Below, one piece after another: positions 3,107 to 43,264 of a stretch of DNA of 64,000 bases. Positions within the stretch are counted from its first letter, which is position 1, and every line of letters starts with the position of its first letter. A program made the translations under genes and the position numbers. Source of the stretch: Candidatus Yanofskybacteria bacterium (GTDB lineage Bacteria; Patescibacteriota; Minisyncoccia; 2-02-FULL-40-12; IGHO2-01-FULL-4-A); contig JACPNJ010000005.1 in NCBI GenBank assembly GCA_016185545.1, forward strand, positions 167,754 to 231,753. Direction: 5' to 3'. The notes beneath the pieces are model-generated. The model had not been told where the DNA came from and searched no databases. It saw only the letters and a list, made by a program, of their open reading frames with translations.

Positions 3107-4768
3107 CTAATCAAGTATTTTAAAAGGTTCGTCTTTCTTTTGCGGCTTTGGCGGCGGGGGTATCAGCCCGCCTTGCGGCAAACCGCCTAGCATCGGCGTT
3201 GTCGCTTGAGACATTGTTCTCTTGGGCTCGTAAAGACGCTCGCCGGGAGCATGTTTCTTGTACTCCAACTCTATGCTTCTGCGGATATTTAGCAGAAGAC
3301 TTACAATTGAAAATTTCATCGGATATATTTTGAAAACATTCAGATAACCCTTAACGAAAAAATAAAAAATGAAATAAAGTTTTGCCAGAGGCAGTTTGAA
3401 CAGAAATTCGGCAAATTTCCTGGAATATAAGAACGGGAAAGCAAGAAATACCGTTCCCAGCAACGACATGTTGCTTTGCATTCTTTTTTCCAGTGGGGTA
3501 AAACAATTTAACGGACTCTCGTTTTGATAACTTGCGTTAAGATTACCGAAATCAGAATAATCAAACCAGCCGTTTTCTACCACATAGTCGGAAAGTTCAC
3601 AGCCCGGATAAGGATAAACGGGCGAGAATTCTCCGAAAGTAACTTTGGATTTTATATTCAACTCCAAAGAATCAAAATCGTAATCAATCGCCGTTTTTCC
3701 CTGCTCGGTCATTACTTCACTTTTTATCGGAATGGCCAAGATTGAATTGGCAAAAGTTTTGACGCCCATTTCATTGCAAAGCGCGAAGGCCTCTTCAATT
3801 TCAGGCCGGGTCATGTGGCGTTTTATGATTTTTTCTCTGATATAATCGTTGCCCGACTCAATGGACATTGTTAATGAATGAAGGCCGGCTTTCTTCAGGG
3901 CGGTAAGATTCTCTCTGGTCAAAACGTTGCATCGCGTTAAGCAGAAAAACGGCAGGCCGACTTCTTGAGGGTAAATTTCGGCAAATTCAGCAAGCCAAAA
4001 ATCAACGCTCCGGCTTAAAATAAACATATCGTCATAAAATTTAATGAACTGGGTAGGATACCTGTGTTTTAATTCTTTAAGTTCGGCGCATAATCGTCTA
4101 GGAGAATATCTTCTGTATATCGAACCCAAACCGCGCTGCTGGATGTTCGTTTTGGGTTCAAAACAATAAGTACATTCAAACGGACAGCCCCACGAACTCA
4201 TGAAACAGCGCATTGGAAATTTGCCTAAATGCGTTTTGCTGTAAACAATCTCTCTGTCATAAAAAGGTAGCCCATCCAGAGGGTGAGTTAATTTGTGTCT
4301 GAAACGATTCCGATTCGCTTCCGTTTCGTTTTTCCATTTGGAAAGCCAAGTCTCTCTGGTAAAAATATTAGGAATATTACCGGCATCTTCTCCGGCCTGT
4401 AAAGCTTTAAGCAGTTTTGGCCAAGCAACATCGCATTCGCCTACACCAATCGCGTTTAAATCGCTTTCTTCAATAATATCGGGATTGAAGGTCGGATGAG
4501 GCCCACCCATAATTGTAATAATATTTTTGGAATAATCCTTTACTTTGTCGTTAGCTTTCAGAAAAAATTGCTGTTCGCCAGTTTTTACACTGCAATGTGC
4601 GACTATATCCGGTTTGATACGCTTTAATTCTTCGCCCAAGTCGTCCTGACTCAAAACGGTTAAAAATGTCGCGAATCCTTCCCGTTTTGCCAAGGCTGAC
4701 ATCAGCATTACACCCATCGGGTCAATGTAATCAACGTTATTTACAACAAAAAGAATTTTGTCGGCCAC
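3107..4768 (-). CDS. B12-binding domain radical SAM enzyme (class B radical-SAM methyltransferase-like)
   Basis: N-terminal B12-binding-like fold, then a CxxxCxxC cluster (WGCPFECTYCFEP); 553 aa with a Pro-rich C-terminal tail. Confidence 0.75.
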   Translation of the reverse strand: MADKILFVVNNVDYIDPMGVMLMSALAKREGFATFLTVLSQDDLGEELKRIKPDIVAHCSVKTGEQQFFLKANDKVKDYSKNIITIMGGPHPTFNPDIIEESDLNAIGVGECDVAWPKLLKALQAGEDAGNIPNIFTRETWLSKWKNETEANRNRFRHKLTHPLDGLPFYDREIVYSKTHLGKFPMRCFMSSWGCPFECTYCFEPKTNIQQRGLGSIYRRYSPRRLCAELKELKHRYPTQFIKFYDDMFILSRSVDFWLAEFAEIYPQEVGLPFFCLTRCNVLTRENLTALKKAGLHSLTMSIESGNDYIREKIIKRHMTRPEIEEAFALCNEMGVKTFANSILAIPIKSEVMTEQGKTAIDYDFDSLELNIKSKVTFGEFSPVYPYPGCELSDYVVENGWFDYSDFGNLNASYQNESPLNCFTPLEKRMQSNMSLLGTVFLAFPFLYSRKFAEFLFKLPLAKLYFIFYFFVKGYLNVFKIYPMKFSIVSLLLNIRRSIELEYKKHAPGERLYEPKRTMSQATTPMLGGLPQGGLIPPPPKPQKKDEPFKILD

Positions 4769-5391: not shown

Positions 5392-5778
5392 ATGGAAAAC
5401 GTAAATCTAACCACAATGTTTGCCTCTGCTATTATACTCTCGGGGATTTTTGTTCTTAATTTGATTGTAGGTATGTACTACGGTTTTGGCGTTCGGCATT
5501 ACTGGTTTTTCCAGACATTGCATTTTTTGGGCGGGTTTTTTGTGGCTATGTTTTTCTCAAGCCTTTTCAACTCCACCGTTTTGATTTTAATAGGTCTTGG
5601 CGTCATCAGCATTTTGTGGGAATCGGCGGAGTTTTTGATTGCGTCTATTCCGACGCTTTCAAAATACGTAAAAGAGCAGTTCCGGCTTAAAAATGTGGAC
5701 TACAAATGGGCGGACGCCTTATTTGATCTTGCTTTAAATTCCACCGGCGCGATTCTGTTTATCTATATTTTTAAATGA
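5392..5778 (+). CDS. small integral membrane protein (hypothetical)
   Basis: hydrophobic segments; start moved to Met MENVNLTT because the 5' part of the ORF overlaps the inverted-repeat structure. Confidence 0.45.
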   Translation: MENVNLTTMFASAIILSGIFVLNLIVGMYYGFGVRHYWFFQTLHFLGGFFVAMFFSSLFNSTVLILIGLGVISILWESAEFLIASIPTLSKYVKEQFRLKNVDYKWADALFDLALNSTGAILFIYIFK

Positions 5779-6299
5779 CCAAGTGTATTTTTCTTGACCG
5801 TGATGGCGTGCTTGTTAAGAGCGTTTTAAGGAACGGGCAATTGGACGCGCCGTTTAATTTGGCTGAATTCGAAATTGTAAAGGATGCGCCGGACGCAGTA
5901 ACAAATTTTAAAAAATTGGGTTATCTTTGTATCGTAATTTCTAATCAGCCGGGTATCTCTCTAGGCCAGATTAGCCAGACGGAAGTTGAACTAATGAATC
6001 AAAAACTTCTAGCCCAATTGCTATTGGACGATATCTACATTTGTCCCCACTCTCATCTTGAGAATTGCGAGTGTCAAAAACCAAAAATCGGCCTTTTTTT
6101 AAAAGCAATCCAGAGATGGGAGATTGATCCCAAAATCTCGTTTATGATCGGAGACCGAGATACAGATATTCAAGCGGCCAAAAAAGTTGGTTGTCGCAGT
6201 ATTTTAATAACTGGCGGAGACGATTCTGGATTAACCGAGCCCGATTTTTATGCGACCAGTTTGACTGAGGCGGTTTTGGTGGTAGCTCAAAATAGCTAA
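5775..6299 (+). CDS. gmhB: D-glycero-D-manno-heptose 1,7-bisphosphate phosphatase-like HAD-IIIA phosphatase
   Basis: FLDRDGVL HAD motif I and the CxH...CxC zinc motif (CPHSHLENCECQKPK) typical of GmhB/histidinol-phosphatase-like enzymes. Confidence 0.7.
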   Translation: MTKCIFLDRDGVLVKSVLRNGQLDAPFNLAEFEIVKDAPDAVTNFKKLGYLCIVISNQPGISLGQISQTEVELMNQKLLAQLLLDDIYICPHSHLENCECQKPKIGLFLKAIQRWEIDPKISFMIGDRDTDIQAAKKVGCRSILITGGDDSGLTEPDFYATSLTEAVLVVAQNS

Positions 6300-6325
6300 G
6301 AAAAAAACTGAGCTTTTAAGCTCAG
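6298..6325 (-). terminator. rho-independent terminator (minus strand)
   Basis: hairpin ctgagcttttaagctcag preceded on the plus strand by an A7 tract (a U tract on the minus strand). Confidence 0.55.
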
Positions 6326-6497
6326 TCTGTAAAAGAAAAAAGTGTATAAGCTATGCGGGTTTTGTGCGGGTTTGTGATTTTCAAGTGATGGATCGGCGGC
6401 TGTACGGTACTATCCACGAACATCATCAATTACAGGGTCGAATCTTAGACAGCTAACAAATTAAAACTCCATTTCTCGCGAGAAATAGTGTCGTTTA

Positions 6498-6833
6498 TTA
6501 TGGGTTACCAAGTGCGTTCCAAAATTTTGCACTCATCTCTTTAGCACTAATTTTAGGATAAACCCCAATCCTGCCGTAATGGAGTATCAAAAAAGTACGA
6601 TCATCACAAGGAATTACTTTTAAATTTTCTGGTCGAACATCATTTTCATCTAAAAACCTCATTAGTCTATTACTTTTAACCCCCGAGGAATTCAGATCAT
6701 TGACATCCAAGAAAAAACCGTGCCACTTTATTTTTTTTCTATTTTTCTCTGCGACTTTTCCATTACCCAAACTTTTTTCTTTCATAGTTTGTTTCACTGT
6801 TTGTTTCACTTTTTCCTCTTTATTCAATTGCAA
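6498..6833 (-). CDS. hypothetical protein (TTG start)
   Basis: 111-aa ORF lying directly downstream (on the minus strand) of promoter-like repeat R1. Confidence 0.4.
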   Translation of the reverse strand: MQLNKEEKVKQTVKQTMKEKSLGNGKVAEKNRKKIKWHGFFLDVNDLNSSGVKSNRLMRFLDENDVRPENLKVIPCDDRTFLILHYGRIGVYPKISAKEMSAKFWNALGNP

Positions 6834-6917
6834 AAGACCAATCTGCCGGGGCTTTTATGGCTCCCCAGCATCATAAGTAGGTTAGCATACGAGCCTATGG
6901 CGTGTCAAGAGTAAAAG
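6818..6917 (-). promoter_or_regulatory. repeat R1 copy 1 (promoter-like cassette)
   Basis: ~95-bp sequence duplicated at 8404-8500; the minus strand carries TTGACA-N18-TAACCT. Confidence 0.5.
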
Positions 6918-7924
6918 GTAATGTGCAAGCACATATGGCGGTTTTCTCCTAACATGGAGAAATGGCCATATCTATGTCAAAAACAATCAAAGAAGAACGT
7001 TTAAGATGGGTACAGCCCATAGTCAGAAAAGAGGTAAAGTTGGTTGATGCGGCAAGGGTTTGTCTCTACGGCAAGCGTACTCTTGAGAGATGGGTTGCCG
7101 CATACAAAAAGAATGGTGAAAGCGGTTTAGAACCCAGGTCTACAGCACGCAAGACCCAAAACAACGAGACACCGATTCGTATTAAAGAGCATGTAATTGC
7201 GCTCCGCAAACAAACCCATAAATGCGCTTTGAAATTGTACTGGCACATGAAGAAGGAGGGATTGATTGTTCCAGCAAGAACCATCGGTAAAATCCTTAAA
7301 CAAGAAGGGCTGGTGCGAAAGTATCGGGTTAAACGAGTAAAGTATAAATATCTCAAAGCCACGCTCAAACCAGGCGAACTTGTGGAAATAGATGTTAAAT
7401 ATGTTCCCGGAGCTGTTGCGGGACGCCAATACTTTCAATATACCGCTGCCGACAAGGCTTCGCGGTGGAGACATCTTGAAATTTATGACGAGCAGGTCAA
7501 TCATCACAGCGTTTTGTTCCTTTCAGAAATAATCAGAAGGGCGCCATTTCATATTTTAGCAATCAAAACGGACAACCATTCAACATTTACTAATTACTAC
7601 ACCGGTACCAACAAAAGAAGCGACCTCTTGGTAAAGTCGCTTCATGCACTGGATATTGCCTGCCGAGAATATGGCATCAGACATTATTTAATTGACCCGG
7701 GCAAGCCGGCACAGAATGGCACAGTAGAACGAAGCCATCGTGAAGACCAAGAAAAGCTTTATGATAAACATTCGTTCGTTTCTGAAAAAGAGTTGCGCTA
7801 CCGCGTCAGATTGTGGAATATGTACTACAACAACCTTGAACACTGCGGGTTGAACGGAAAAACGCCAAATGAGTTTATCGCAAATTATCAACTAACCCAT
7901 CCGCCAAATGTGCCTGCCTAGAAC
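6918..7924 (+). mobile_element. IS481-family insertion sequence
   Basis: ~1 kb; terminal inverted repeats 'aatgtgcaagcacatatggcgg' vs the reverse complement of 'ccgccaaatgtgcctgcctagaac'; single DDE integrase-type transposase; interrupts an R1-R2 cassette that is intact at 8404-8529; short A-rich target duplication. Confidence 0.75.
6962..7921 (+). CDS. IS481-family transposase (integrase catalytic core, DDE)
   Basis: N-terminal HTH followed by an rve core with D (VEIDVKYV), D (IKTDNHSTF) and E (NGTVERSH). Confidence 0.85.
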   Translation: MAISMSKTIKEERLRWVQPIVRKEVKLVDAARVCLYGKRTLERWVAAYKKNGESGLEPRSTARKTQNNETPIRIKEHVIALRKQTHKCALKLYWHMKKEGLIVPARTIGKILKQEGLVRKYRVKRVKYKYLKATLKPGELVEIDVKYVPGAVAGRQYFQYTAADKASRWRHLEIYDEQVNHHSVLFLSEIIRRAPFHILAIKTDNHSTFTNYYTGTNKRSDLLVKSLHALDIACREYGIRHYLIDPGKPAQNGTVERSHREDQEKLYDKHSFVSEKELRYRVRLWNMYYNNLEHCGLNGKTPNEFIANYQLTHPPNVPA

Positions 7925-7957
7925 AAAAAAACAAAACCGCCAAATGGCGGCAAATCA
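7925..7957 (-). terminator. repeat R2 copy 1 (rho-independent terminator)
   Basis: minus strand: ccgccatttggcgg hairpin followed by ttttgtttt. Confidence 0.6.
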
Positions 7958-8042
7958 GTTGGTTAGTAATTTTTGATAAAGTAGGCCCAAGCGAAGTCGT
8001 AAAGACACTCCATAATAAAAAACGAGGTGTTTCCTCGTTCAA

Positions 8043-8390
8043 TTAATTCAACCTGTTTACTATAAAAGTTTTATCTAGTTTTTCTCCTAACATGGGGGAA
8101 TATTTTTTTGTTTTCCAGAAACCAGGTTTTTCTTTAGAAACCTTCCACCTGCTACCATTAGATAAAGTGACTATCCAATAATCTATTTCCCTAGTTATTG
8201 CAAATTGAGGGACGGTTGTTTCTATAAAACTATATGACTCAATTTTTGTTATGCTGTATTTGGAGTTTTCTAGAAGTACTCTTTGTATTACTTGACCGTT
8301 TCTCACAAAATAATAAAATGCTGGAATAGCAAATATAAGAAAAAATATCAGCATTTTTGCCCAAGGATTAATACTATTAAGTTTTAACAC
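8043..8390 (-). CDS. hypothetical membrane-anchored protein (GTG start)
   Basis: 115 aa with an N-terminal hydrophobic helix; downstream of R1 copy 2. Confidence 0.4.
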   Translation of the reverse strand: MLKLNSINPWAKMLIFFLIFAIPAFYYFVRNGQVIQRVLLENSKYSITKIESYSFIETTVPQFAITREIDYWIVTLSNGSRWKVSKEKPGFWKTKKYSPMLGEKLDKTFIVNRLN

Positions 8391-8403
8391 AATATCCTCC
8401 TTT

Positions 8404-8500
8404 TTTATTCAATTGAAAAAGATCAACCTGCCGGGGCTTTTATGGCTCCCCAGCATCATAAGTAGGTTAGCATACGAGCCTATGGCGTGTCAAGAGTAAA
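8404..8500 (-). promoter_or_regulatory. repeat R1 copy 2 (promoter-like cassette)
   Basis: near-identical to 6818-6917. Confidence 0.5.
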
Positions 8501-8529
8501 AAACAAAACCGCCAAATGGCGGCAAATCA
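8501..8529 (-). terminator. repeat R2 copy 2 (terminator; contiguous with R1 here)
   Basis: identical to 7925-7957; follows the stop of 8549..8863 on the minus strand. Confidence 0.6.
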
Positions 8530-8548
8530 TTTTTCTTTTCAAGATGAT

Positions 8549-8863
8549 TTACACCAATCTTTTTCCAATAGCCTTGACGGTGCGCTCAAGAATCTTAATC
8601 CTATGCTGCAAATCTAAAATATCACCTTCTTCAAAGCGAGTTAAGACCTCATAGATATCATCAATTTTAGCTTCTATTTTACCCGTACGAGATTGAAATT
8701 CTTCCTTTGTCACCATTCTCTGTTCCACTGATTCAAAACCCCTGGCCACCATATTTGCCAGATCATCAAGGGTTACCCCTTTTTTATTCTTGTTTGGCAT
8801 ATATGTAAATATATCTAGTGGTCGCCAACTTGCAAGATTGACAAGTAAGTATATGTTTTGCAA
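8549..8863 (-). CDS. hypothetical protein
   Basis: 104-aa ORF; likely start at the internal Met MPNKNKKG; coiled-coil-like. Confidence 0.4.
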   Translation of the reverse strand: MQNIYLLVNLASWRPLDIFTYMPNKNKKGVTLDDLANMVARGFESVEQRMVTKEEFQSRTGKIEAKIDDIYEVLTRFEEGDILDLQHRIKILERTVKAIGKRLV

Positions 8864-9065
8864 ATTAAAAAGCGGCTGACTGCACCGCTTGTTTATTTAT
8901 CTCTTATTTGATAAGCCCTTCTCTACATTTCCCACCAATTGCGAGGTTACCGAAGTAACCTGATGAAAAGTAATGCGTTGTTTTGCCAAACCATAGGTGA
9001 ATAATATGGCAAAAAGCAAAAAATGTGCACCTATTAAATCCATAACATCTTTTGTAATTTTGAAA

Positions 9066-9096
9066 ATAAAAAAACCCGGCTCATTGGCTGGGTTTA
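9066..9096 (-). terminator. rho-independent terminator after the TPP enzyme gene
   Basis: minus strand: cccagccaatgagccggg hairpin followed by tttttttatttt. Confidence 0.6.
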
Positions 9097-10923
9097 AATT
9101 CCTTGCATCCCCTCTTCTTCATTATTTTTCAAAATATCAATTAACATGACTTCTCTTAATTCTTCCCGTGGCAAAAGCGGGTGCTGGTCTTCAAGCGGAT
9201 TACCGAATTCCAGCCGCGGAGCGATTTTCTGGTGTTCATCCAACATCACATCGCAAACAACCGGACCGTTATAATCCATGGCTTCTCTTATGCTTGATTC
9301 CATTTCGGCATGGTTATTAATTCTGAAAGCGGCAACATCATAAGCCCGGGCAACTTTTACAAAATCAGGACAACTATAACCATCGCGGGACGACACCGCC
9401 AAGTACCTTTTTTCAAGCTCTTCCACGCTGGCAATACCAAACCAAGACTCAATTGTCTGTTTAATGATTCCGTAACTGCGATTATTCAAAACAAAAACTT
9501 TAATCGGCAGTCCCAGCCGCTTAATCGTTTCCAATTCCTGTATGTGAACCTGGAATCCCCCGTCGCCGATTATGCAAACTACCGGTTTTTTATCATTGGC
9601 AAGACAGACGCCGATACTCGCGGCAAGCGAATAGCCCATTGAAGACAAGCCCATATTGGAAAAAACCCTTTGGCCTTCTTTTACCTCAAAGGCCTGCATT
9701 GTCCAAATAAGATTTCCGCCGCAATCGGTAATTACTGAAACGGAAGCATTCAGCATATTGGAAAGGATCTTTAAAAAAACATAAACATTGACCGAATCTT
9801 TTTGCTGATAATATTCAGGTAAAACTTCAGTGTATTTGACTTTATAATCCGTTGTTTGATTGCGCCACTCACCAATATTAAGCTTCGGGAGATATTTGTT
9901 TTGACCGAACAAAAGATCAAAGAAGTCGCGCAGGTCGCATTTGATAGGTAAATCAATTTTGACTCGCGCTCTTTCCAGCTCAAATTCATCAATATCAACC
10001 ATGATTTTTTTGGCGGCTCGCGCGAATGTATGCGGGCTCCCGCCGGTTTGCCTGACATTTAACCGCGCTCCAAGAGCAATAACCAAATCGGCGTTTTGAA
10101 TGGTAAAATTAGCCCGTCTGTTGCCATAACTGCCTATATTGCCCAGATAAAGCGGATGATTGTGCGGCATATTATCAAAAGCGGCCCAAGTAGCAACCGT
10201 GGGAATACTAAGTGATTCAACAAATTTTCGCGCTTGTCCAATTGTACCAGATAGTCTTAAACCGCCGCCAAGCAAAACAACAGGACGTTTGGCTTTTTTG
10301 ATTATGGTTAAGGCTTCAGCAACTTTACCGGCAAGTTTATCAAGCTCATTTTGCGGCGTATAACACGTGACCTGATAAATACCAATAAGTTTTTCCGGTT
10401 CAATATTGGCTTTCTGCACATCCAAAGGTATCTCAAGAAGCACCGGTCCCGGTCTGTCTTCGTTAGCAATAAGAACGGCTTTCTCCAGGTAATATCTTAT
10501 CTTCTCCGGGTCTTCGACATATTGGGCATACTTGGTAATAGAACCGGCGATAGTAACCATGTCTACAATCTCTCGGCCATGCGAAGCTACTTCTTTGTTG
10601 CGGTTCCATCTTTCTCTGACTACCTGCCCACAGATAAAGATACACGGAATGGAATCGTTCCAACACCCATCAATACCATTAAGCAAATTAAGGGCGCCGG
10701 GAGCATTGGTGGTTATTACCGCTCCAAGACCGCAATCCGCAAATCGCGAATATCCTTCTGCCGCCATAGCCGCCACTTGTTCATGATTAACGCATACGTG
10801 TTTTAACCGTGGTTCGTGGTGCAGTGAATCTATCAGATTTACCGCGTAACCGCCGGTAACCACAAAGACATGTTTTAGTCCCAAATCAGCCAAAAAATGA
10901 ATCACATAATCAGAAAGTTTCAT
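9094..10923 (-). CDS. thiamine-diphosphate-dependent acetolactate-synthase-like enzyme
   Basis: N-terminal TPP pyrimidine-binding domain (HVFVVTGGYAVNLIDSL), central domain and C-terminal TPP-binding domain (GDGGFQ); 609 aa with a C-terminal extension. Confidence 0.75.
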   Translation of the reverse strand: MKLSDYVIHFLADLGLKHVFVVTGGYAVNLIDSLHHEPRLKHVCVNHEQVAAMAAEGYSRFADCGLGAVITTNAPGALNLLNGIDGCWNDSIPCIFICGQVVRERWNRNKEVASHGREIVDMVTIAGSITKYAQYVEDPEKIRYYLEKAVLIANEDRPGPVLLEIPLDVQKANIEPEKLIGIYQVTCYTPQNELDKLAGKVAEALTIIKKAKRPVVLLGGGLRLSGTIGQARKFVESLSIPTVATWAAFDNMPHNHPLYLGNIGSYGNRRANFTIQNADLVIALGARLNVRQTGGSPHTFARAAKKIMVDIDEFELERARVKIDLPIKCDLRDFFDLLFGQNKYLPKLNIGEWRNQTTDYKVKYTEVLPEYYQQKDSVNVYVFLKILSNMLNASVSVITDCGGNLIWTMQAFEVKEGQRVFSNMGLSSMGYSLAASIGVCLANDKKPVVCIIGDGGFQVHIQELETIKRLGLPIKVFVLNNRSYGIIKQTIESWFGIASVEELEKRYLAVSSRDGYSCPDFVKVARAYDVAAFRINNHAEMESSIREAMDYNGPVVCDVMLDEHQKIAPRLEFGNPLEDQHPLLPREELREVMLIDILKNNEEEGMQGI

Positions 10924-10984: not shown

Positions 10985-11012
10985 AGGCAATAAAACCACC
11001 GTTTGGTGGTTT
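10985..11012. terminator. bidirectional terminator-like hairpin
   Basis: aaccaccgtttggtggtt flanked by A-rich and T-rich runs. Confidence 0.5.
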
Positions 11013-11548
11013 TAATTAAAAACTTCGGCATATCTTTCTTCCAGCCATCTTGTGATATTTATTTCTGTTTGCGTCCAAAAGTGCCATGGTAAACTGCAAT
11101 AGCCTAACTTTTTCATCTCGCGCCATGCATCTTTGACATCCCAACCCATCACTCCAACTCTGTATACAAAGCATAGGCACCCGGTGCGATCTCTGCCGAG
11201 AACGCAATGAACCAAGACCGGTTGATTTGACTTGCGGGAAACAAATTCAATGAATTTGTTTATTTCATCATCGCTGGGAGCACGACCTGATATGGGAATT
11301 TGCAGAACGGCAAGCTTGTGAGCCGATGCCCAATCAAATTCCCAATCTTCGGCATGTTTTAATAAAATAATAATAGAATTTATGCCATATTTTTCCACAA
11401 AATAAGACAATGCCTCCGGCGTGGGTTGAGACGATCGATACAGCTTCCCCGCTTCCACCTCGTAAAATCTAAATCTTTTTTCATACGACAACCAAGGAAT
11501 AAAATGTTTCAAACGCGTAACCACTTCGCGAAACATTGATTTAAGCAT
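11012..11548 (-). CDS. dual-specificity / tyrosine protein phosphatase
   Basis: CX5R P-loop VHCVLGRDRTG. Confidence 0.7.
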   Translation of the reverse strand: MLKSMFREVVTRLKHFIPWLSYEKRFRFYEVEAGKLYRSSQPTPEALSYFVEKYGINSIIILLKHAEDWEFDWASAHKLAVLQIPISGRAPSDDEINKFIEFVSRKSNQPVLVHCVLGRDRTGCLCFVYRVGVMGWDVKDAWREMKKLGYCSLPWHFWTQTEINITRWLEERYAEVFN

Positions 11549-11550
11549 TT

Positions 11551-12291
11551 CTACCCGCCTCTCCGAGAAAAGTATATTTTTTTAATGAGTTTGAGCACCG
11601 TCTTGGCAACGCTTATAATATTATCAATTCTCGTAGCATTAGTCCGTCCGTATTTACGGAGACCACGGGTATAAAACGGCGCTTCCGCATAGGAAAGGCG
11701 GTATTTTTTCAAAAGCATCACCAAGATCTCGGCCATATAAGCAAAATCATTGGCATCGGGGTTAAGCTCACGAAGTATTTTGGTCGGGATAATCGTCGTA
11801 CCGTTGTAGTAGCGAAGGCACAAATCGAAAATTAAATTCATGAATACGGTAAATGTTTTGGATATCAGGCGGCGCTTGAACGGCCGACGACTCATATCGG
11901 CTTGATAACCGATAACGATATCGGCGCGCTCCAGGCAATCAAAAAGGTTTTTCAAAGAATCGCCATGCAGGGTGTTTTTACCGGGCACCATCATAAAGTA
12001 ATCAAACCGCGCCGTTGCTAATCCTTGCTTATATTTTAAACCCAGATTGATGAAAGCTTGATTGTGAATAACACGCACTTTCTGATTTTGGCTTGCTAAC
12101 TGATTGGCAAGCTCTGGCGTGCCATCACTTGAACCGTCCGGCTCAAACGAGTCCACAATTATAATTTCCCAATCCACAACTTTGCCCTCTTGGACAAAAG
12201 TCATCATGTTTTCGTTAACATACCTGACCGCACCCTCCAAATTACCCGCTTCTTTGTGAGCGGGCATCACCACGCTCACAGAAACGGCCAT
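11551..12291 (-). CDS. family 2 glycosyltransferase
   Basis: VSVVMPAHKEAGNL N-terminus; GT-A fold. Confidence 0.7.
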   Translation of the reverse strand: MAVSVSVVMPAHKEAGNLEGAVRYVNENMMTFVQEGKVVDWEIIIVDSFEPDGSSDGTPELANQLASQNQKVRVIHNQAFINLGLKYKQGLATARFDYFMMVPGKNTLHGDSLKNLFDCLERADIVIGYQADMSRRPFKRRLISKTFTVFMNLIFDLCLRYYNGTTIIPTKILRELNPDANDFAYMAEILVMLLKKYRLSYAEAPFYTRGLRKYGRTNATRIDNIISVAKTVLKLIKKIYFSRRGG

Positions 12292-12418
12292 AAGACTCTC
12301 CTGTTGAATTATTTGTCAACGAACTTGACACAATAAATATCACAAAAGTGGCATATTGCCAATACGTCAAAATTATTATAAACTCACAAAAGCTATTTCA
12401 CAAAAAACAGGAGATGAA

Positions 12419-13630
12419 ATGGAAACTAGGCAAATTGACACACAATTTGATAGTCAAAAAATTATATATCATCCGGCTTGGCTGAAACGGTGGCTAAACG
12501 ACCCCTTTTCAGCGCCGCCGATTTATATGGAAATATCGCCTATCGGTCTTTGTAACCATCGCTGCACCTTCTGCGCCAAAGAAGTGATGGGGTATCCCGA
12601 CAGAAGTATCCCAAAAGAGAGGCTACTTTGGTTTGTCCAAGAACTGGCATATTTAAGATCTCATGATCCTGATGGCTTAGGCGTGAAAAGCCTAATGCAT
12701 GCTGGTGAAGGAGAACCGACACTCTATAAAGACCTTGCTGAAGTTATCGTGGAAACTACCAAATGCGGTATAGAAAGCGCGCTCACTACCAATGCCACCG
12801 GTTTAACGGAAAAATTTCTTGACACCGCTCTCCCGCATTTAAGCTGGATTAAGGCCAGCGTTAATGCCGGCAAGAAGGAGACCTATACAAAAATACACAA
12901 AGCCAAACCGAACCATTGGGATACCGTCTGGCGTAATCTTGAACGAGCAATAGAGATACGAGTAAAATTCGGTTATTCGTGCGAAATCGGTTGTCAAACG
13001 GTGCTTCTGGTAAATGACACAACAGACTTAGATGGCACAGTAGTGCCCGCCAACTGGCAAGAAGCTACTGATTTAGCAAAGAAGGCAAAAGAAACGGGCC
13101 TTGACCATGTGGTGATTAAGCCCTATGGCCAAAATCCATATAGCTTGGGAACCATGCAAAGATACGGCAACATGAAATATAACGGATTCTTAAAAGAACT
13201 GGAAGAAATGGACAAAGAACTACAGAAATTAAATAACGAAAATTTTAAAGTTGTTTTCAGATGGAATACTATACTTAGCTATGAAAAACCAAAACGGGAA
13301 TACGAAAAATGTCTGGCGACACCCATGTCCTGGGCATATCTCCAATCAGACGGCATGCTCATCAGTTGTGCCGCCCATAATAGCAACCCGGACTTTGACC
13401 TCGGCAACATAAAAGACAAAACCTTTAAAGAAATCTGGTGGGGCGAGCGCCGCCGCCGACACATTGAATTTATGAAAAATTTTGACATCTCCGCCTGCCG
13501 TAAAAATTGTAGGATGAATTTTGTAAACGAAGCCCTCTGGAATTTAGAAACGAAACGCCAATCCGGATTGGTAAGTATACAAGAAACTTTTCCGCCCGAT
13601 TCCTTACCCAAAAATGTTAATTTTATCTGA
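12419..13630 (+). CDS. radical SAM / SPASM-domain enzyme
   Basis: CNHRCTFC (Cx3Cx2C) cluster plus a C-terminal Cys-rich SPASM region; the ORF is open from 12356 (TTG) but AGGAG precedes the ATG at 12419. Confidence 0.7.
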   Translation: METRQIDTQFDSQKIIYHPAWLKRWLNDPFSAPPIYMEISPIGLCNHRCTFCAKEVMGYPDRSIPKERLLWFVQELAYLRSHDPDGLGVKSLMHAGEGEPTLYKDLAEVIVETTKCGIESALTTNATGLTEKFLDTALPHLSWIKASVNAGKKETYTKIHKAKPNHWDTVWRNLERAIEIRVKFGYSCEIGCQTVLLVNDTTDLDGTVVPANWQEATDLAKKAKETGLDHVVIKPYGQNPYSLGTMQRYGNMKYNGFLKELEEMDKELQKLNNENFKVVFRWNTILSYEKPKREYEKCLATPMSWAYLQSDGMLISCAAHNSNPDFDLGNIKDKTFKEIWWGERRRRHIEFMKNFDISACRKNCRMNFVNEALWNLETKRQSGLVSIQETFPPDSLPKNVNFI

Positions 13631-13648: not shown

Positions 13649-14230
13649 ATGCAACCGGTGCTGATTGTTTTTCTTGGAGTCCAGCTTTCAGGTAAAACAA
13701 CTCTGGCCCAAACAGTATCCCAAGAAACCGGCATTCCTTTTATCAATCTGGACCAAGTGAGAAAAGAACTATTTGGACCAGTTCTATCGGGACCAAAAGA
13801 TTGGCAAAATGCAGAAAAAGAAACCATAGAGAATGCGAAAACTGCGCAGGGCTATGAACGTCTTTTTACAATCATGGGAAACAGTGCCAAGCAAGGCAAA
13901 TCATTGATAGTAGAAATGCCATCGCTTACAAAAAAATGGGGCCTTGGCACCAGAGAAGATCAGCTTAAACAAATTGTTGAATTATCTTCGGCAAAATTAA
14001 AAATAATATGGTGCTACATTGCCAACAATGAAGAATCAGAAGTTAAAAAGAGATCCGATGAAAGATTAGAGGACATCCAAGCGGCTCCGATACGACCGGA
14101 AGATTATTATATGTTTAAAGCAAGATACGCAAGATGCGGAGGAAGGCCCGCGCTTGAACATTTAGCCATAGACACTTCGCAACCACAAGAAGTCTGTCTG
14201 GCGCAAATACGAAAATATCTGGACGCGTAA
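13649..14230 (+). CDS. P-loop kinase (AAA_33 / zeta-toxin-like fold)
   Basis: Walker A GVQLSGKTT. Confidence 0.55.
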   Translation: MQPVLIVFLGVQLSGKTTLAQTVSQETGIPFINLDQVRKELFGPVLSGPKDWQNAEKETIENAKTAQGYERLFTIMGNSAKQGKSLIVEMPSLTKKWGLGTREDQLKQIVELSSAKLKIIWCYIANNEESEVKKRSDERLEDIQAAPIRPEDYYMFKARYARCGGRPALEHLAIDTSQPQEVCLAQIRKYLDA

Positions 14231-14291: not shown

Positions 14292-14462
14292 TTACCAGTT
14301 ACTAATATACCCGTCAATCGTCTTCTTGAGTCCCTTTCTGAAATCGGTTTTTGCTTTAAAACCGAATTCTTTTTTTGCCCTGTTGACATCAAGCATTCGG
14401 CGCGGCTGGCCATCGGGCTTGGTTTTGTCCCAAACAATTTTTCCTTTATATTGCGTAACCAT
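14292..14462 (-). pseudogene. C-terminal remnant of a GDP-L-fucose-synthase (Fcl)-like gene
   Basis: minus-strand translation [56 protein letters not shown] aligns with the C-terminus of the fcl gene at 17329..18258 ([38 protein letters not shown]); only the last ~57 codons are present. Confidence 0.6.
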
Positions 14463-14558
14463 AGTAGTTTCCTCAACGTCATAATAAAATAATACAGCCG
14501 TTTAACTGTTATTGGACTGTTTTTATTTAATTTGATATATTAGCTTCACTCAATTAAA

Positions 14559-15272
14559 ATGATAGATACAGCAATAATCTTAGCGGGTGGAAGAGGGCTA
14601 CGACTAATGCCCCAAACGGCCGAACAGCCAAAAGCTATGGTTAAAGTTTTGGGTCGCCCGATGATTGAATGGATAATACTTTGGCTTAAAAAAAATAAAA
14701 TAACGAACATAATCGTAAGTGTAGATTACAAAAAGGTAAAGTTGATGAAATATCTGGGAAATGGTAAAAAGTTTGGAGTAAATATATGCTATAACGACCA
14801 CGCGGGAGCGTCAGAAACAGGAGATGCATTTCGCAGTGTCTTTTTAAATATAAAATCTTTGCCAGATGTTTTTGTAGCGATGAATGGGGATCAAATTACA
14901 AATCTTCCAATCAAAAAACTTGTTGCCCACCACAAGAAACATGACCCGATAGCAACCATAGTGACCTGCCCTATAAAAAGTCCATACGGAATAGTCACTC
15001 ACAACAACCTTAATCACTTGGTCAAAGATTTCAAAGAAAAGCCTATTCTGCCGAATATTTACATGAATACCGGTATTTACATTTTCAACAAAAAAATCAT
15101 TAAGTATCTGCCGCAAAAAGGGTCAGTAGAGAGAACGACTTTCAAAAAATTAATCAGAGAACAAAAACTCAAAGCTTATATTCATAGGGGACTATTCGTC
15201 ACGATAAACGACAACAAAGACCTGCAAGATACTGAAAGTATTTTAACCAAATCAAAAATTAATTTTTTATGA
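14559..15272 (+). CDS. sugar-1-phosphate nucleotidyltransferase (GDP-heptose/mannose-1-P guanylyltransferase-like)
   Basis: N-terminal AIILAGGRGLRLMP nucleotidyltransferase motif. Confidence 0.7.
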   Translation: MIDTAIILAGGRGLRLMPQTAEQPKAMVKVLGRPMIEWIILWLKKNKITNIIVSVDYKKVKLMKYLGNGKKFGVNICYNDHAGASETGDAFRSVFLNIKSLPDVFVAMNGDQITNLPIKKLVAHHKKHDPIATIVTCPIKSPYGIVTHNNLNHLVKDFKEKPILPNIYMNTGIYIFNKKIIKYLPQKGSVERTTFKKLIREQKLKAYIHRGLFVTINDNKDLQDTESILTKSKINFL

Positions 15273-15274
15273 AT

Positions 15275-15381
15275 CCCGTTAGAAATTAATCCTAACGGGA
15301 ATAAAAGGTATTTTATTAATATAAGATTGTGAGCTTGCCACCTGTTTAAAGTGGTGGACAGTCCGCAAAACTTCTAACGGG
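15275..15381 (+). repeat. family A palindromic junction element, copy A1
   Basis: terminal inverted repeats cccgttagaa.../...acttctaacggg; inner stem ccacctgtttaaagtggtgg; sits between the TGA of the upstream gene and an ATG. Confidence 0.8.
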
Positions 15382-15669
15382 ATGAATCCCGTACGAACCA
15401 AAACGTTCTATTATGCATATGTAATACAAAGCAATAAAGATGGGCGTTTTTATACAGGTTTTACGGTGGATTTACGGAAGCGCCTTAAGGAGCATAATGA
15501 AAGTAAGTATATTTCTTGGACAAAAGGAAGGGGACCGTTTGACCTAATTTATTATGAAGCCTGCAAAAACAAAGAAGATGCCAGGCAAAGAGAAAAATAT
15601 CTTAAAACAGGACGAGGCAAGCGCTTTATTAAAGAAAGATTAAGGCGCTTCCTGGTTCGTACGGGATGA
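15382..15669 (+). CDS. GIY-YIG nuclease superfamily protein (YhbQ/COG2827-like, 95 aa)
   Basis: YYAYVIQSNKDGRFYTGFTVDLRKRLKEHN = GIY-YIG motif block; the ORF runs exactly between the 12-bp inverted repeats. Confidence 0.8.
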   Translation: MNPVRTKTFYYAYVIQSNKDGRFYTGFTVDLRKRLKEHNESKYISWTKGRGPFDLIYYEACKNKEDARQREKYLKTGRGKRFIKERLRRFLVRTG

Positions 15670-15671
15670 AA
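15382..15671 (+). mobile_element. inverted-repeat-bounded GIY-YIG unit flanked by ATGAA direct repeats
   Basis: ATGAAT-CCCGTACGAACC...GGTTCGTACGGG-ATGAAA; perfect 12-bp inverted repeat; 5-bp direct repeat. Confidence 0.65.
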
Positions 15672-16619
15672 GTATTAATAACCGGCATAACCGGATTTAT
15701 CGGAAGCGAACTTGCGCGCAAACTCTTAAAAGACGGGGACTTTGAAATCGCCGGTCTTTTGCGTACTTCTTCAAATCAGAAAAGAGTTGATGCTATAGAC
15801 GACATAATTAATAATATCAGGGTTTTTTATGCTAACTTCAATGACCACCATGCCATACGCAATGTAATAAAAACTTTCCGCCCTAATTATATACTTCACA
15901 TTGGCGCTCAAACTGCCGTGCGAGATTCTTTTGAAATGCCCCATGAGTTCAATGAAACAAACTATCTTGGCACCATCAATCTGATTCATGCGGCTCTTGA
16001 AGTGGCTGATTTTAAAAAATTTATATTCGCTTCCACGATGGAAGTCTACGGATTTCAGAAAGCTCGGAAGCCGTTTAGAGAAGATCTGCCGTTAAACCCG
16101 GGTAGTCCCTATGCTGCATCCAAGGCCGCCTGCGAACATTATCTGCGAATGGCTAATCAGGCTTTCGGCCTCCCCTATCTCATATCACGCGCCTGTAATA
16201 CGTATGGCAGAAAACATAACTCCGGATACATAGTTGAACATATCATTACATCCATGCTAGACCGAAAAAAGGTATACATAGGCACACCCAAAGCAGTACG
16301 CGATTTGATGCATGTAGATGACCATGTAAATGCCTACGTGACCCTGTTGAAATCTAATGTTGTTAATGAAACCTTTAACTTCGGCACCGGATCGGGCCTG
16401 ACCATGTTGGAGCTAGCCAACATTATCAAAAAAAGACTGGGTTACAAAGACAAAATAATCGCAAGATTTCCTTCGTGGTATCTTTTTCGTCCTTTGGCCG
16501 AGGAATATTTATCAATAGACAGTTTGAAAGCCAAAAAAATTCTTGGATGGGAACCGAGAATTTCTCTTGATAAGGGTCTGATTTCAACAATTGCATATTG
16601 GAAAAAGGTTAAAAAATAA
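15666..16619 (+). CDS. NAD-dependent sugar epimerase/dehydratase (extended SDR)
   Basis: ITGITGFIGSEL Rossmann motif; YAASK catalytic motif. Confidence 0.75.
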   Translation: MKVLITGITGFIGSELARKLLKDGDFEIAGLLRTSSNQKRVDAIDDIINNIRVFYANFNDHHAIRNVIKTFRPNYILHIGAQTAVRDSFEMPHEFNETNYLGTINLIHAALEVADFKKFIFASTMEVYGFQKARKPFREDLPLNPGSPYAASKAACEHYLRMANQAFGLPYLISRACNTYGRKHNSGYIVEHIITSMLDRKKVYIGTPKAVRDLMHVDDHVNAYVTLLKSNVVNETFNFGTGSGLTMLELANIIKKRLGYKDKIIARFPSWYLFRPLAEEYLSIDSLKAKKILGWEPRISLDKGLISTIAYWKKVKK

Positions 16620-16624
16620 AAAAG

Positions 16625-16650
16625 CGCTTTTGTAAGCGCAATGGCAACCA
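16625..16650 (-). terminator. rho-independent terminator (minus strand)
   Basis: gcgcttacaaaagcgc hairpin followed by ttttttatttttt on the minus strand, directly after the stop at 16673. Confidence 0.6.
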
Positions 16651-16672
16651 TTGACAATATCACATCATGCGG

Positions 16673-17260: not shown

Positions 17261-17319
17261 ACCTACGCATGCATCATGTAATAAAAATGTGCCAGATTGG
17301 TTTAAATAGTCATTATTAA

Positions 17320-18258
<939 letters not shown>

Positions 18259-31270: not shown

Positions 31271-31303
31271 TTTGATATTTAAAAACCCAACTAAAAAGTC
31301 GGG

Positions 31304-31705: not shown

Positions 31706-31716
31706 ATACCGTCCTC

Positions 31717-33913: not shown

Positions 33914-33955
33914 AATTACCGATTACCAATTACTGATTACTAATTACCGGTTCCC
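33914..33955. repeat. array of five (N)ATTAC(C/T) heptamer direct repeats in the SDR-neuB intergenic spacer
   Basis: attacc-g-attacc-a-attact-g-attact-a-attacc. Confidence 0.5.
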
Positions 33956-35678: not shown

Positions 35679-35680
35679 CT

Positions 35681-35768
35681 AAATTCAAAAAGCAAATCTC
35701 AAATCTCAAAATCTAATTTATAATTAAAAACTTTCATTTTGGATTTTGAGATTGAAATTTTGAATTTT
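35681..35768. repeat. 'caaatctcaaaat' AT-rich palindromic hairpin (empty copy of the 4HB-module inverted repeat)
   Basis: gcaaatctcaaatctcaaaatc ... gattttgagattg. Confidence 0.65.
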
Positions 35769-40934: not shown

Positions 40935-40955
40935 AACCGGCATAAAACCGGTTTT

Positions 40956-43237: not shown

Positions 43238-43264
43238 CTTTACGTTATTTTTGCAGAAAATAAA

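Follow-up and report, generated by a model that had tools for sequence, protein, structure and literature searches.

A YerE-like ThDP enzyme and a transketolase-like CMP-ulosonic acid cassette as two likely glycan-tailoring modules in a Candidatus Yanofskybacteria genome

Gene content of the glycan island

The DNA analyzed here comprises 64 kb of a 339-kb contig from the MAG of an uncultured, ultra-small Candidatus Yanofskybacteria bacterium (Patescibacteria/CPR), and is referred to as the window. Profile searches assigned glycan functions to nearly every scanned gene, including sugar-nucleotide, ulosonic-acid, glycosyltransferase, methyltransferase and export functions, in agreement with the glycan island described in the original prediction. 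NeuB and CTP_transf_3 genes are present in three copies each, together with an ABC exporter of the Wzm/Wzt type. By the same searches, no rpe, rpi or tal is present in the 64 kb, and no pentose-phosphate or ilv genes are found there.

The three ORFs at the centre of that prediction were all found, at 9094–10923 on the reverse strand and at 52524–54434 and 54558–56015 on the forward strand. The first encodes a ThDP-dependent enzyme of 609 amino acids, in which the TPP_enzyme_N, M and C domains are recognized with E values of 1e-28 to 1e-41. The second encodes a transketolase-like ThDP enzyme with the Transketolase_N, pyr and C domains of Pfam. Its longest ORF spans 52485–54434 and has a TTG start. 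The ATG at position 52524 is preceded by an AAAGGA motif, lies 13 nt downstream of the stop codon of a short-chain dehydrogenase (SDR) gene, and yields a protein of 636 amino acids identical to that deposited at NCBI (P0121); it is therefore the better start, as originally placed. The third ORF encodes an NAD(P)-dependent aldehyde dehydrogenase of 485 amino acids that matches the full Aldedh model with 484 bits. It reaches no equivalog, the best being 2,5-dioxovalerate dehydrogenase with 383 bits against a cutoff of 750.

Sequence relationships of the ThDP-dependent enzyme

The product of 9094–10923 displays the three-domain organization of the decarboxylase superfamily, with a canonical GDG...NN ThDP motif and the catalytic glutamate within an HEQ motif. 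It shares the Pfam architecture, the ThDP motif and the catalytic glutamate with the large subunits of AHAS (IlvB/IlvI/IlvG), to which it is 28–30% identical, but it scores below every curated cutoff for these enzymes. The best model, TIGR00118, gives 371 bits where 538 are required, and the other ALS models remain far under their cutoffs. A comparison with PDB entries yields 348 bits for JanthE and 313 bits for PpYerE, against about 243 bits for AHAS and at most 244 bits for AHAS, Gcl and others, and the identity to JanthE and PpYerE is 33–35%. A 6-residue insertion is common to the three proteins and absent from plant AHAS in the alignment.

In a neighbor-joining tree of 22 sequences, which was computed without YpYerE and ErwE, the enzyme groups with JanthE, PpYerE and CPR homologues. 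It lies outside the AHAS clade (EcIlvB, EcIlvI, AtAHAS), which is recovered with a bootstrap value of 94/100. The BLASTP scores descend in steps, from 533–556 bits for CPR homologues partnered with a PanB-like protein, through 372–405 bits for CPR homologues partnered with an aldolase, to 351 bits for JanthE, 312 bits for PpYerE and 248–258 bits for AHAS. A regulatory subunit is lacking as well: the downstream ORFs at 8549–8863 and 8043–8390 have no ACT or ALS_ss_C match that would identify an ilvN or ilvH, and no IlvH/IlvN-like gene occurs in the flanks of the metagenomic relatives (0/80). The gene context is that of glycan synthesis, as opposed to the branched-chain amino acid synthesis of AHAS. 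The view that the protein is of the YerE type and not an IlvB thus agrees with the missed cutoffs, with the best solved relatives, with the position outside the AHAS clade, and with the absence of an adjacent ilvN. By sequence, the protein looks like a YerE-like, sugar-branching enzyme and not an AHAS. Some of its homologues are named 'acetolactate synthase' by JGI.

The characteristic fold of the YerE-like lyases (YpYerE, ErwE, MMAR_2332, PpYerE (PDB code 5AHK) and JanthE (PDB code 8RPH)), composed of the three domains of the decarboxylase superfamily, is common to the window enzyme. Both occur in surface-glycan clusters with NDP-sugar 4,6-dehydratase genes, and the PanB-like protein of the window may build a functionalised 2-oxo acid. 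PpYerE and JanthE are the nearest solved relatives, yet their low identity and the position of the window enzyme in a CPR-rich clade of its own set it apart, and its canonical GDG motif is replaced by CDG in JanthE. The partner that would form the donor also differs, being a PanB-type hydroxymethyltransferase (together with a B12-radical SAM enzyme) here and a pyruvate aldolase of the BphI/HpaI type in YerE-like systems, with an aldolase in the ErwE and MyGE clusters. Krug et al. (2024) have reportedly surveyed YerE-like clusters in silico.

Genomic neighbourhood of the ThDP-dependent enzyme

The ThDP gene forms an operon on the reverse strand with the upstream genes of a dual-specificity/Tyr-phosphatase-like protein (11012–11548) and a GT2 glycosyltransferase (11551–12291), both assigned with Pfam, and the order GT2–(phosphatase)–TPP recurs in loci L008, L009 and L102. 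Divergent from this operon, on the forward strand, Pfam identifies a radical SAM/SPASM enzyme (12356–13630) and an AAA_33 kinase-like protein (13649–14230), which are conserved neighbours of the module in L008 and L009/L010. Beyond the other end of the operon, the reverse strand encodes a PanB-like 2-oxo-acid hydroxymethyltransferase (2092–3015) and a B12-binding radical SAM enzyme (3107–4768), recognized with Pfam and NCBIfam. They are separated from the ThDP gene by an insertion block (5775–9093) that contains a GmhB-like HAD gene (5775–6299), small ORFs and an IS481-family transposase gene (6962–7921; Pfam/NCBIfam), and for which tblastx detected no counterpart in the sister genome L008.

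The PanB-like protein retains all catalytic residues of EcPanB, and scores 209.4 bits with the true PanB model TIGR00222, barely above the cutoff of 207.55. Its gene adjoins the TPP gene in L009/L010, L100 and L101, and in 9 of the 80 metagenome loci. The published order is an aldolase, then the YerE-like enzyme and then a reductase (PMC9306805, PMC12247030). An aldolase of the BphI/HpaI type is missing at the window module, and DmpFG/HpcH aldolases are found in the relatives L006 and L100. Directly beside the window ThDP gene there is no DegT/E1-type dehydrase and no clear YerF-type reductase.

Further along the forward strand lie the genes of a sugar-1-phosphate nucleotidyltransferase (14559–15272), an NDP-hexose 4,6-dehydratase-like protein (15666–16619) and a GDP-fucose-synthase-like epimerase/reductase (17329–18258), all of them found with Pfam and below the NCBIfam cutoffs; a NUDIX gene (16673–17260; Pfam) is located on the opposite, reverse strand. 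To judge from these assignments, the genes from 14559 to 18258 are candidate suppliers, able to provide the ThDP enzyme with a 4-keto-6-deoxy acceptor. Among the 80 metagenomic relatives, a 4,6-dehydratase-like gene accompanies the ThDP gene in 48, a DegT gene in 42 and an NTP-transferase gene in 22. The order NTP–dehydratase–DegT–TPP is recurrent in this set and fits the logic of yersiniose synthesis, and a TPP–DegT fusion protein was also observed (P0036).

Active site of the transketolase-like enzyme

The transketolase-like enzyme (52524–54434, forward strand) falls short of the curated transketolase cutoffs, with 395 bits against 488 for NF004559 and 155 bits against 682 for TIGR00232. Its top match in the PDB is human TKT, with 223 bits. 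The protein is annotated as 'transketolase' by NCBI. Its residues were mapped onto human TKT, EcTktA and EcDXS, and are given here in the human numbering. The three transketolase domains, the ThDP-binding residues and the catalytic His and Glu are common to canonical transketolases (human TKT, E. coli TktA and the short bacterial enzymes, fused or split), and His37, His77, His110, Asp155, Asn185, His258 and Glu366 are all kept. A DXS-like function was ruled out, since His110 is retained at the position occupied by Phe in EcDXS.

By contrast with canonical transketolases, five ligands are exchanged: Ser345 to Asp, His416 to Leu, Asp424 to Pro, Arg474 to Ser and Arg318 to Ile. The range across homologues is S345D, H416L/Y/F/M, D424P, R474S/I/N/T and R318I/V/S. 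The column of Arg318 is alignment-sensitive; faster MAFFT misplaces this residue, and the assignment was taken instead from L-INS-i and the position of the motif. The exchanged pattern occurs in all cassette-linked homologues, whereas canonical short transketolases retain the R, S, H, D and R, and both Asp424 and Arg474 are absent from 120 of the 120 best homologues. The enzyme has thus intact cofactor-binding and ketol-handling residues, and has lost the canonical residues that bind phosphate and hydroxyl groups.

Organization and distribution of the CMP-ulosonic acid cassette

The transketolase-like gene is located within a CMP-ulosonic acid cassette and not among pentose-phosphate genes. 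In the local version of the cassette (50761–57078), the SDR, transketolase-like and aldehyde dehydrogenase genes are flanked by those of a CMP-synthetase and a NeuB-family enzyme. The CMP-ulosonic-acid synthetase (CTP_transf_3; 50761–51513, reverse strand; Pfam) is PseF-like (151 bits; cutoff 206), and its orthologues, 33–65% identical, lie directly upstream of the transketolase gene in cassette loci. A classical SDR (51698–52510, forward strand; Pfam, NCBIfam) is the first gene of the SDR–transketolase–aldehyde dehydrogenase operon; its orthologues are present within cassette loci, and in L002 it is fused to the CMP-synthetase. Orthologues of the aldehyde dehydrogenase in cassette loci are 42–60% identical. 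The NeuB-family ulosonic acid synthase (NeuB and SAF domains; 56035–57078, reverse strand; Pfam) reaches 296 bits with NeuB_NnaB, for which the cutoff is 400, and its orthologues, 43–68% identical, head the cassette in other genomes.

A phosphatase of the KdsC family for sugar-acid phosphates is encoded at 46032–46616 on the reverse strand. It passes only the model of the broad KdsC subfamily (TIGR01670, 128 bits against 107), and gives 91 bits against 180 with the Kdn-9-P phosphatase model. A Hydrolase_3 gene is found between the NeuB and SDR genes in L006 and L007, and the window gene is a candidate for the same HAD step, presumably displaced from the cassette in this genome. The NeuB-family synthase, KdsC-family phosphatase and CTP_transf_3 genes, all present in the window, are contiguous in L006 and L007. 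This core is common to the phosphorylated-precursor pathways of Kdn and Kdo. The cassette differs from both in the addition of the co-conserved SDR, aldehyde dehydrogenase and transketolase-like genes, which belong to neither pathway, and in a NeuB and a CMP-synthetase that miss the specific equivalog cutoffs.

In many phyla, the cassette appears as a co-oriented series of NeuB, KdsC-type phosphatase, SDR, aldehyde dehydrogenase, CMP-synthetase and transketolase genes. SDR and aldehyde dehydrogenase genes lie within four genes of the transketolase in all six CPR contexts, with compact co-oriented operons in L006 and L007. These contexts are six individual loci, as no CPR genomes are among the matches listed in the genome scan with the transketolase profile. 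Among those listed matches, at least three of the four cassette genes occur within 8 kb in 23 of 38 loci with a non-canonical transketolase and in none of 42 canonical ones. The remaining 15 of the 38 listed loci are without the full cassette; some are short contigs, and the non-canonical loci of Ignavibacteria and of some Actinomycetes have no cassette genes at all. In L002, a KDPG-type aldolase replaces NeuB. A literature search on a transketolase/NeuB/aldehyde dehydrogenase/cytidylyltransferase cassette, on transketolases with ulosonic or nonulosonic acids, and on heptulosaric acid biosynthesis found nothing relevant. The cassette looks like a widespread, undescribed system for an activated acidic sugar.

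Proposed chemistry of the two modules

The original prediction had joined the three genes in a single carbon-chain chemistry, which the arrangement does not favour. The ThDP enzyme and the transketolase-like enzyme lie 41 kb apart, and a common pathway for them was ruled out because each keeps conserved neighbours of its own. It is likely, on our assessment, that the region holds two separate glycan-tailoring modules, one with a YerE-like ThDP carboligase and the other with the SDR/transketolase-like/aldehyde dehydrogenase trio of a CMP-ulosonic acid cassette, both with predicted substrates. Neither the "acetolactate synthase" nor the "transketolase" of the island appears to be a housekeeping enzyme.

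By analogy with YerE, ErwE and JanthE, the ThDP enzyme would decarboxylate a 2-oxo acid to an acyl-anion equivalent, and would attach this at the keto function of an NDP-deoxy-keto sugar to form a C-branched sugar. The PanB-like enzyme and the B12-radical SAM enzyme are anticipated to form the 2-oxo-acid donor and to modify it. Because the PanB-like protein is the conserved partner in this subclade, often together with the B12-radical SAM enzyme, the donor is probably a hydroxymethylated, and possibly methylated, 2-oxo acid rather than plain pyruvate. For the same reason, the simple two-carbon branch that had been proposed is unlikely in this subclade.

In the second module, NeuB and the phosphatase would generate a free 3-deoxy-ulosonic acid that is then activated with CMP. 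The SDR may oxidise the penultimate carbon of the side chain to give a terminal ketol, from which the transketolase-like enzyme would cleave off or transfer a two-carbon unit. The resulting aldehyde would be converted to a carboxylate by the aldehyde dehydrogenase, giving a shortened CMP-ulosaric acid. We infer that the SDR, the transketolase-like enzyme and the aldehyde dehydrogenase together reshape the side chain of a CMP-ulosonic acid. The family matches of the SDR (gluconate 5-dehydrogenase/KduD-like) and of the aldehyde dehydrogenase (2,5-dioxovalerate-dehydrogenase-like) fit this chemistry, but they are non-specific, below cutoff and barely over unrelated models, and are therefore given little weight. 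We tentatively propose, as one possibility, that the trio constitutes an undescribed pathway of several phyla, in which a transketolase-derived enzyme devoid of sugar-phosphate binding acts on a CMP-activated ulosonic acid, cutting or remodelling its exocyclic side chain, and in which the product is an acidic surface sugar of a new class (a Dha-like 3-deoxy-ulosaric acid).

The transketolase-like enzyme could also work in the reverse direction: it would take two carbons, as a hydroxyacetyl or glycolaldehyde unit, from a donor such as hydroxypyruvate or a ketose and attach them to an aldehyde or keto group made by the SDR on the (CMP-)ulosonic acid, thereby extending or branching the sugar. The retained ketol-handling residues and the missing phosphate-binding residues are consistent with this, and the linkage to the cassette is equal to that of side-chain shortening. 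There is a parallel in miharamycin and amipurimycin synthesis, for which a hydroxyacetylation of keto sugars by transketolases has been proposed (PMC12247030); these likewise represent transketolase-family enzymes recruited from central metabolism to sugar tailoring. These known candidates are, however, split-gene enzymes of putative function from Streptomyces nucleoside-antibiotic clusters, whereas the window type is fused, is spread over many phyla and is linked to the genes of NeuB and a CMP-synthetase. Addition of a two-carbon unit would leave the strictly co-conserved aldehyde dehydrogenase without an obvious role, and the compact cassettes L006 and L007 show no evident enzyme for making the donor. 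We regard this direction as doubtful.

A housekeeping assignment, in which an ordinary acetolactate synthase, a transketolase of the pentose phosphate pathway and an aldehyde dehydrogenase of general function happen to be located amid the glycan genes of a small, dense genome, is very unlikely. It is in line with the NCBI and JGI names mentioned above, and with the counting of transketolase in CPR metabolic reconstructions (PMC7143001). It conflicts with the failure of both ThDP proteins at all curated AHAS and transketolase cutoffs, with the missing ilvN at the locus and in the 80 relatives, with the transketolase pocket devoid of phosphate-binding residues, and with the absence of pentose-phosphate and ilv genes from the window. 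The same transketolase type and cassette are, moreover, found in phyla with large genomes. The remodelled pocket and the cassette partners sustain the non-housekeeping role that was predicted for the transketolase and aldehyde dehydrogenase. If the genome is without another transketolase, the enzyme may serve the pentose phosphate pathway.

Since the PanB-like protein scores some 2 bits over the true PanB cutoff and its catalytic residues are complete, a role in pantoate synthesis was weighed, with the ThDP enzyme and its partner as the remnant of a route to CoA precursors from AHAS through 2-oxoisovalerate to ketopantoate. The pairing of an ALS-like protein with PanB does resemble the valine–pantoate branch. 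However, ilvC, ilvD, ilvN, panC and panE are absent from the window and from the related loci examined, the pair always has glycan genes around it, for GT2, epimerase, dehydratase and radical-SAM enzymes, and the ThDP enzyme groups with YerE-like proteins instead of AHAS, which makes this route highly improbable.

Least probable of all is the predicted supply of sedoheptulose-7-phosphate for heptose synthesis in the island, rejected because the transketolase lacks Arg318, Ser345, His416 and Arg474, the residues by which canonical transketolases bind the phosphate of the substrate: although GmhA-like (38976–39554), GmhB-like (5775–6299) and GT9 heptosyltransferase-like (21349–22440) genes are present in the window and HldE-like genes in relatives, the enzyme is locked into a cassette with NeuB, phosphatase, SDR, aldehyde dehydrogenase and CMP-synthetase, and heptose genes are wholly absent from the compact cassette of L007.

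Implications

YerE-like enzymes are sought as biocatalysts for tertiary alcohols. A large CPR clade in which they are paired with a PanB-type enzyme for making the donor would extend the donors known to be used, as well as the range of branched-sugar structures. The cassette around the transketolase-like enzyme offers a concrete lead, open to testing, towards an activated acidic sugar that would be new, and it would add a new type of reaction to those of the transketolase fold; its compact six-gene operons offer a way to heterologous reconstitution. If the proposed side-chain remodelling is correct, the 'transketolase' of many CPR lineages is a glycan enzyme, and reconstructions of the pentose phosphate pathway may be misassigned. 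The annotations 'transketolase' and 'acetolactate synthase' in CPR genomes should accordingly not be read automatically as central metabolism. CPR genomes are tiny, yet at least 64 kb are given to surface glycans in this MAG.

Gene content of the glycan island

Pfam and NCBIfam scans of approximately 60 ORFs in the 64-kb window show that essentially the entire stretch is devoted to glycan biosynthesis. All three ORFs named in the original prediction exist. The ThDP enzyme (9094–10923, minus strand) comprises 609 residues with TPP_enzyme_N, M and C domains, and the aldehyde dehydrogenase (ALDH; 54558–56015, plus strand) is full-length. The longest ORF of the transketolase-like (TK-like) enzyme begins with a TTG (52485). 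The start given in the original prediction, an ATG at 52524, is preferred, because it lies 13 nt downstream of the SDR stop codon, is preceded by an AAAGGA motif, and gives a 636-aa protein identical in extent to the one deposited for the same MAG (P0121).

A legionaminic-acid-type block occupies positions 28568–36476, and a protein of the 23S rRNA-intervening-sequence family (PF05635; 29747–30118) is embedded within its operon. Besides this block, the window contains two more NeuB genes and two more CMP-synthetases. The three NeuB paralogues and three CTP_transf_3 genes within 64 kb (28568–36476, 37877–38839, 48623–51513 and 56035–57078) represent a very large outlay on acidic surface sugars for a tiny CPR genome. 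Further genes encode NDP-sugar dehydratases and epimerases, methyltransferases of the C- and O-type, glycosyltransferases of families GT1, GT2 and GT9, and a PMT_2 protein. The window also contains a Wzm/Wzt-type exporter and three radical-SAM enzymes, of which two are radical-SAM/SPASM and one binds B12.

The region 37877–46616 constitutes a second ulosonic-acid block, also conserved in the CPR locus L001. It includes a NeuB that lacks the SAF domain, a GmhA-like SIS isomerase, DegT and GFO/IDH/MocA proteins, a radical SAM/SPASM enzyme, two KdsC-type phosphatases, an APH-type kinase and an SDR, and it may produce an amino-ulosonic acid that is derived from a heptose or unusual in some other way. 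A 443-aa protein (49422–50753) is encoded between two CMP-synthetase genes and is 86% conserved in L001. It has no Pfam match, is 25% similar to an L002 gene product with a faint Glyphos_transf match, and may be the transferase that uses the CMP-sugar.

Family placement of the ThDP enzyme

The ThDP enzyme falls below all curated AHAS/ALS cutoffs (best score 371 bits against 538). Its top solved relatives are JanthE (8RPH, 348 bits) and PpYerE (5AHK, 313 bits), with plant and E. coli AHAS at approximately 243 bits. JanthE has been described as YerE-like (PMC12188165); enzymes of this class act in LPS biosynthesis, where they join 2-oxo-acid donors to NDP-deoxy-keto sugars (PMC12247030). HMMER alignments reveal a canonical GDG...NN ThDP motif and a six-residue insertion past the GQV motif that is common to the window enzyme, JanthE and PpYerE, and that plant AHAS lacks. 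A neighbor-joining tree places the enzyme in a group with 14 CPR homologues, JanthE, PpYerE and a Curtissbacteria enzyme; AHAS sequences form a clade of their own (94/100 support) that excludes this group. BLASTP scores are 533–556 bits against PanB-partnered CPR enzymes, 372–405 against aldolase-partnered ones, 351 against JanthE, 312 against PpYerE, 248–258 against AHAS and 183 against glyoxylate carboligase.

An ACT or ALS_ss_C signature is absent from both small ORFs downstream of the gene (Pfam/NCBIfam), so that no ilvN is adjacent, and tblastn found an ilvH/ilvN-like gene at none of 80 metagenome loci, many of them short. Acetolactate synthase was consequently rejected on cutoffs, missing regulatory subunit and tree position, and the enzyme is assigned to the YerE-like type, as originally predicted. 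This sequence-based placement is well supported; it is not final, since identities are modest (33–35% to YerE-like enzymes vs. 28–30% to AHAS) and the comparison set left out YpYerE and ErwE.

Gene neighbourhood of the ThDP enzyme

The 80 metagenome loci were collected by a CPR-clade profile search of contigs followed by tblastn with reference proteins; many span only 2–5 kb, and the neighbour counts are therefore minima. A 4,6-dehydratase-like gene occurs near the ThDP enzyme in at least 48 loci, a DegT-family gene in at least 42 and a sugar-1-phosphate nucleotidyltransferase in at least 22. Nucleotidyltransferase–dehydratase–DegT–ThDP enzyme is a recurrent gene order that parallels the yersiniose route, whose E1 3-dehydrase is a DegT-family enzyme. 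In one metagenome homologue (P0036, 1015 aa), a YerE-like ThDP enzyme and a DegT-family aminotransferase or dehydrase are naturally fused. In the window, the ThDP gene has an NDP-sugar nucleotidyltransferase, a 4,6-dehydratase-like gene and an epimerase/reductase at distances of 3.6–7 kb.

The subclade of the window enzyme has a conserved local module of its own, AAA_33 kinase–radical SAM/SPASM ⇄ GT2–(phosphatase)–ThDP enzyme–PanB-like–B12-radical SAM (sister genome L008, and L009/L010). In L100, L101 and nine of the 80 metagenome loci, too, a PanB-like gene is the immediate neighbour of the ThDP gene. The window PanB-like protein (2092–3015) barely reaches the PanB model and retains every catalytic residue of E. 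coli PanB. L100 is particularly instructive, as it carries two adjacent ThDP genes, one with DmpF/DmpG/HpcH-type aldolases and the other with a PanB-like gene; the aldolase-plus-ThDP pairing is the published ErwE-type arrangement (PMC9306805). If the PanB-like protein takes the aldolase's role in that scheme, it would supply a hydroxymethylated 2-oxo acid, which the ThDP enzyme would then join onto a 4-keto-6-deoxy sugar. The simple two-carbon branch originally envisaged is unlikely for this subclade, given its conserved partner. What sets this YerE-like enzyme apart is its PanB-type partner; the accessible literature on the class yielded no mention of such partners or of CPR members.

A 3.3-kb block (5775–9093) divides the ThDP gene from the PanB-like and B12-radical SAM (3107–4768) genes. 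It holds an IS481-family transposase (6962–7921), a HAD phosphatase resembling GmhB and three small ORFs that match no family, and has no counterpart in the L008 locus, itself 85–90% identical to the window. At 14302–17260, three genes (nucleotidyltransferase, 4,6-dehydratase-like and NUDIX) stand where L008 has an HldE-like gene, and 14302–14451 resembles a residual 3' fragment of the epimerase gene, which suggests cassette swapping within the island. In related CPR islands, E1_dh alpha/beta pairs adjoin epimerase genes (L002, 16897–18812; L004, 14086–16105). These pairs are PDH-E1-like, of the alpha-KADH2 class known for branching sugars, and CPR islands thus hold all three ThDP classes tied to sugar tailoring.

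Conservation of the TK-like cassette

The TK-like enzyme and ALDH are part of a conserved cassette distinct from the ThDP-enzyme module, and a single chemistry shared by the three enzymes, as first proposed, is not sustained. In the window, the cassette comprises a CMP-synthetase (50761–51513), the SDR (51698–52510), the TK-like enzyme (52524–54434), ALDH and NeuB (56035–57078). The best 120 homologues of the TK-like enzyme are 55–82% identical, and all source-named ones belong to CPR lineages. SDR and ALDH genes lie within four genes of the TK-like gene in all six CPR contexts inspected (window, L001, L002, L004, L006 and L007), and a CTP_transf_3 gene is present in five. L006 and L007 display a compact co-oriented operon, NeuB(+SAF)–Hydrolase_3 HAD–SDR–ALDH–CTP_transf_3–TK, which in L007 stands isolated from any larger glycan island.

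A genome scan with a TK profile returned, among the matches listed, relatives 38–55% identical in Melainabacteria, Verrucomicrobiota, Chloroflexota, Chromatiales, Methylobacter, Actinomycetota, delta-proteobacterial lineages, Acidobacteriota, Elusimicrobia and Dehalococcoidales. The cassette order upstream of TK recurs in most of those listed (tblastn with window proteins). In the L002 context of a complete Sungiibacteriota genome (4854–6449 and 9195–9890), the CMP-synthetase and SDR form a single fusion protein, and the position immediately upstream of the TK-like gene is taken by a KDPG/KHG-type aldolase; a NeuB was not detected within 10 kb. No description of the cassette was found in the searchable literature.

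Substrate pocket of the TK-like enzyme

The pocket was aligned with human TKT, E. coli TktA and E. coli DXS. The TK-like enzyme retains the cofactor and catalytic residues H37, H77, H110, D155, N185, H258 and E366, as well as the His at position 428. By contrast, five residues that hold the substrate phosphate and adjacent hydroxyl in canonical yeast, E. coli and human structures are replaced in the window enzyme and all cassette-linked homologues: R318 by I/V/S, S345 by D, H416 by L/Y/F/M, D424 by P and R474 by S/I/N/T. The R318 column falls in a variable linker whose position differs between alignments; the other four are stable. D424 and R474 are missing from all 120 top homologues. The short transketolases of Clostridia, Streptococcus and Bacteroidota (at most 35% identical) retain R, S, H, D and R. 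Among the 80 loci listed from the genome scan, at least three of four cassette genes lie within 8 kb in 23 of 38 with a non-canonical pocket and in none of 42 with a canonical one.

Judged by these residues, the enzyme is not built as a sugar-phosphate transketolase, whatever other copies the genome holds. The remodelling addresses the housekeeping question more directly than gene-copy counting and, with the cassette linkage, upholds the predicted non-housekeeping role; heptose supply, also suggested, is disfavoured by a pocket devoid of the canonical substrate-phosphate residues. Lineages with cassette-linked orthologues are expected to own a normal transketolase too. A complete Microgenomates genome is reported to carry "transketolase genes" that share an operon with an aldolase (PMC7143001), a plural which may mean that CPR pentose-phosphate transketolases can be of the split type. 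A non-canonical pocket (xD[F/Y]PI) also occurs in L032, L034, L039 (Ignavibacteria/Melioribacteraceae), L041, L042, L081 (Actinomycetota/Gaiellales), with no cassette gene within 8 kb, and these loci may reflect a third role for enzymes of this kind.

Proposed cassette chemistry

By family assignment, the cassette contains NeuB, a KdsC-type phosphatase and a CMP-synthetase, the same core as in the phosphorylated-precursor Kdn and Kdo routes. This core implies that NeuB and the phosphatase would generate a free 3-deoxy-ulosonic acid, which would then be CMP-activated. The KDPG-type pyruvate aldolase in NeuB's place in L002 points to a 3-deoxy-2-oxo acid as the intermediate common to cassette variants, and the CMP-synthetase–SDR fusion links the SDR reaction with the activated sugar. 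One possible order of reactions would employ all three additional enzymes. The SDR would oxidise the penultimate side-chain carbon to give a terminal -CHOH-CO-CH2OH ketol, the donor motif recognised by transketolase. The TK-like enzyme would cleave the bond beside the ketone, and ALDH would convert the resulting aldehyde to a carboxylate, yielding a CMP-ulosaric acid two carbons shorter. The missing phosphate ligands fit a dephosphorylated substrate, and the missing D424 fits one with a pyranose ring oxygen at the corresponding oxygen.

The main rival is the reverse direction, in which the TK-like enzyme adds a two-carbon extension or a hydroxyacetyl branch. Such a reaction has been proposed for miharamycin-type transketolases; the reverse direction, however, gives ALDH no explained role. 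The specific sequence of SDR oxidation, TK-like cleavage and ALDH oxidation to a shortened CMP-ulosaric acid is put forward as a tentative and rather doubtful mechanism. Of the two modules, the TK-like cassette holds the greater interest.
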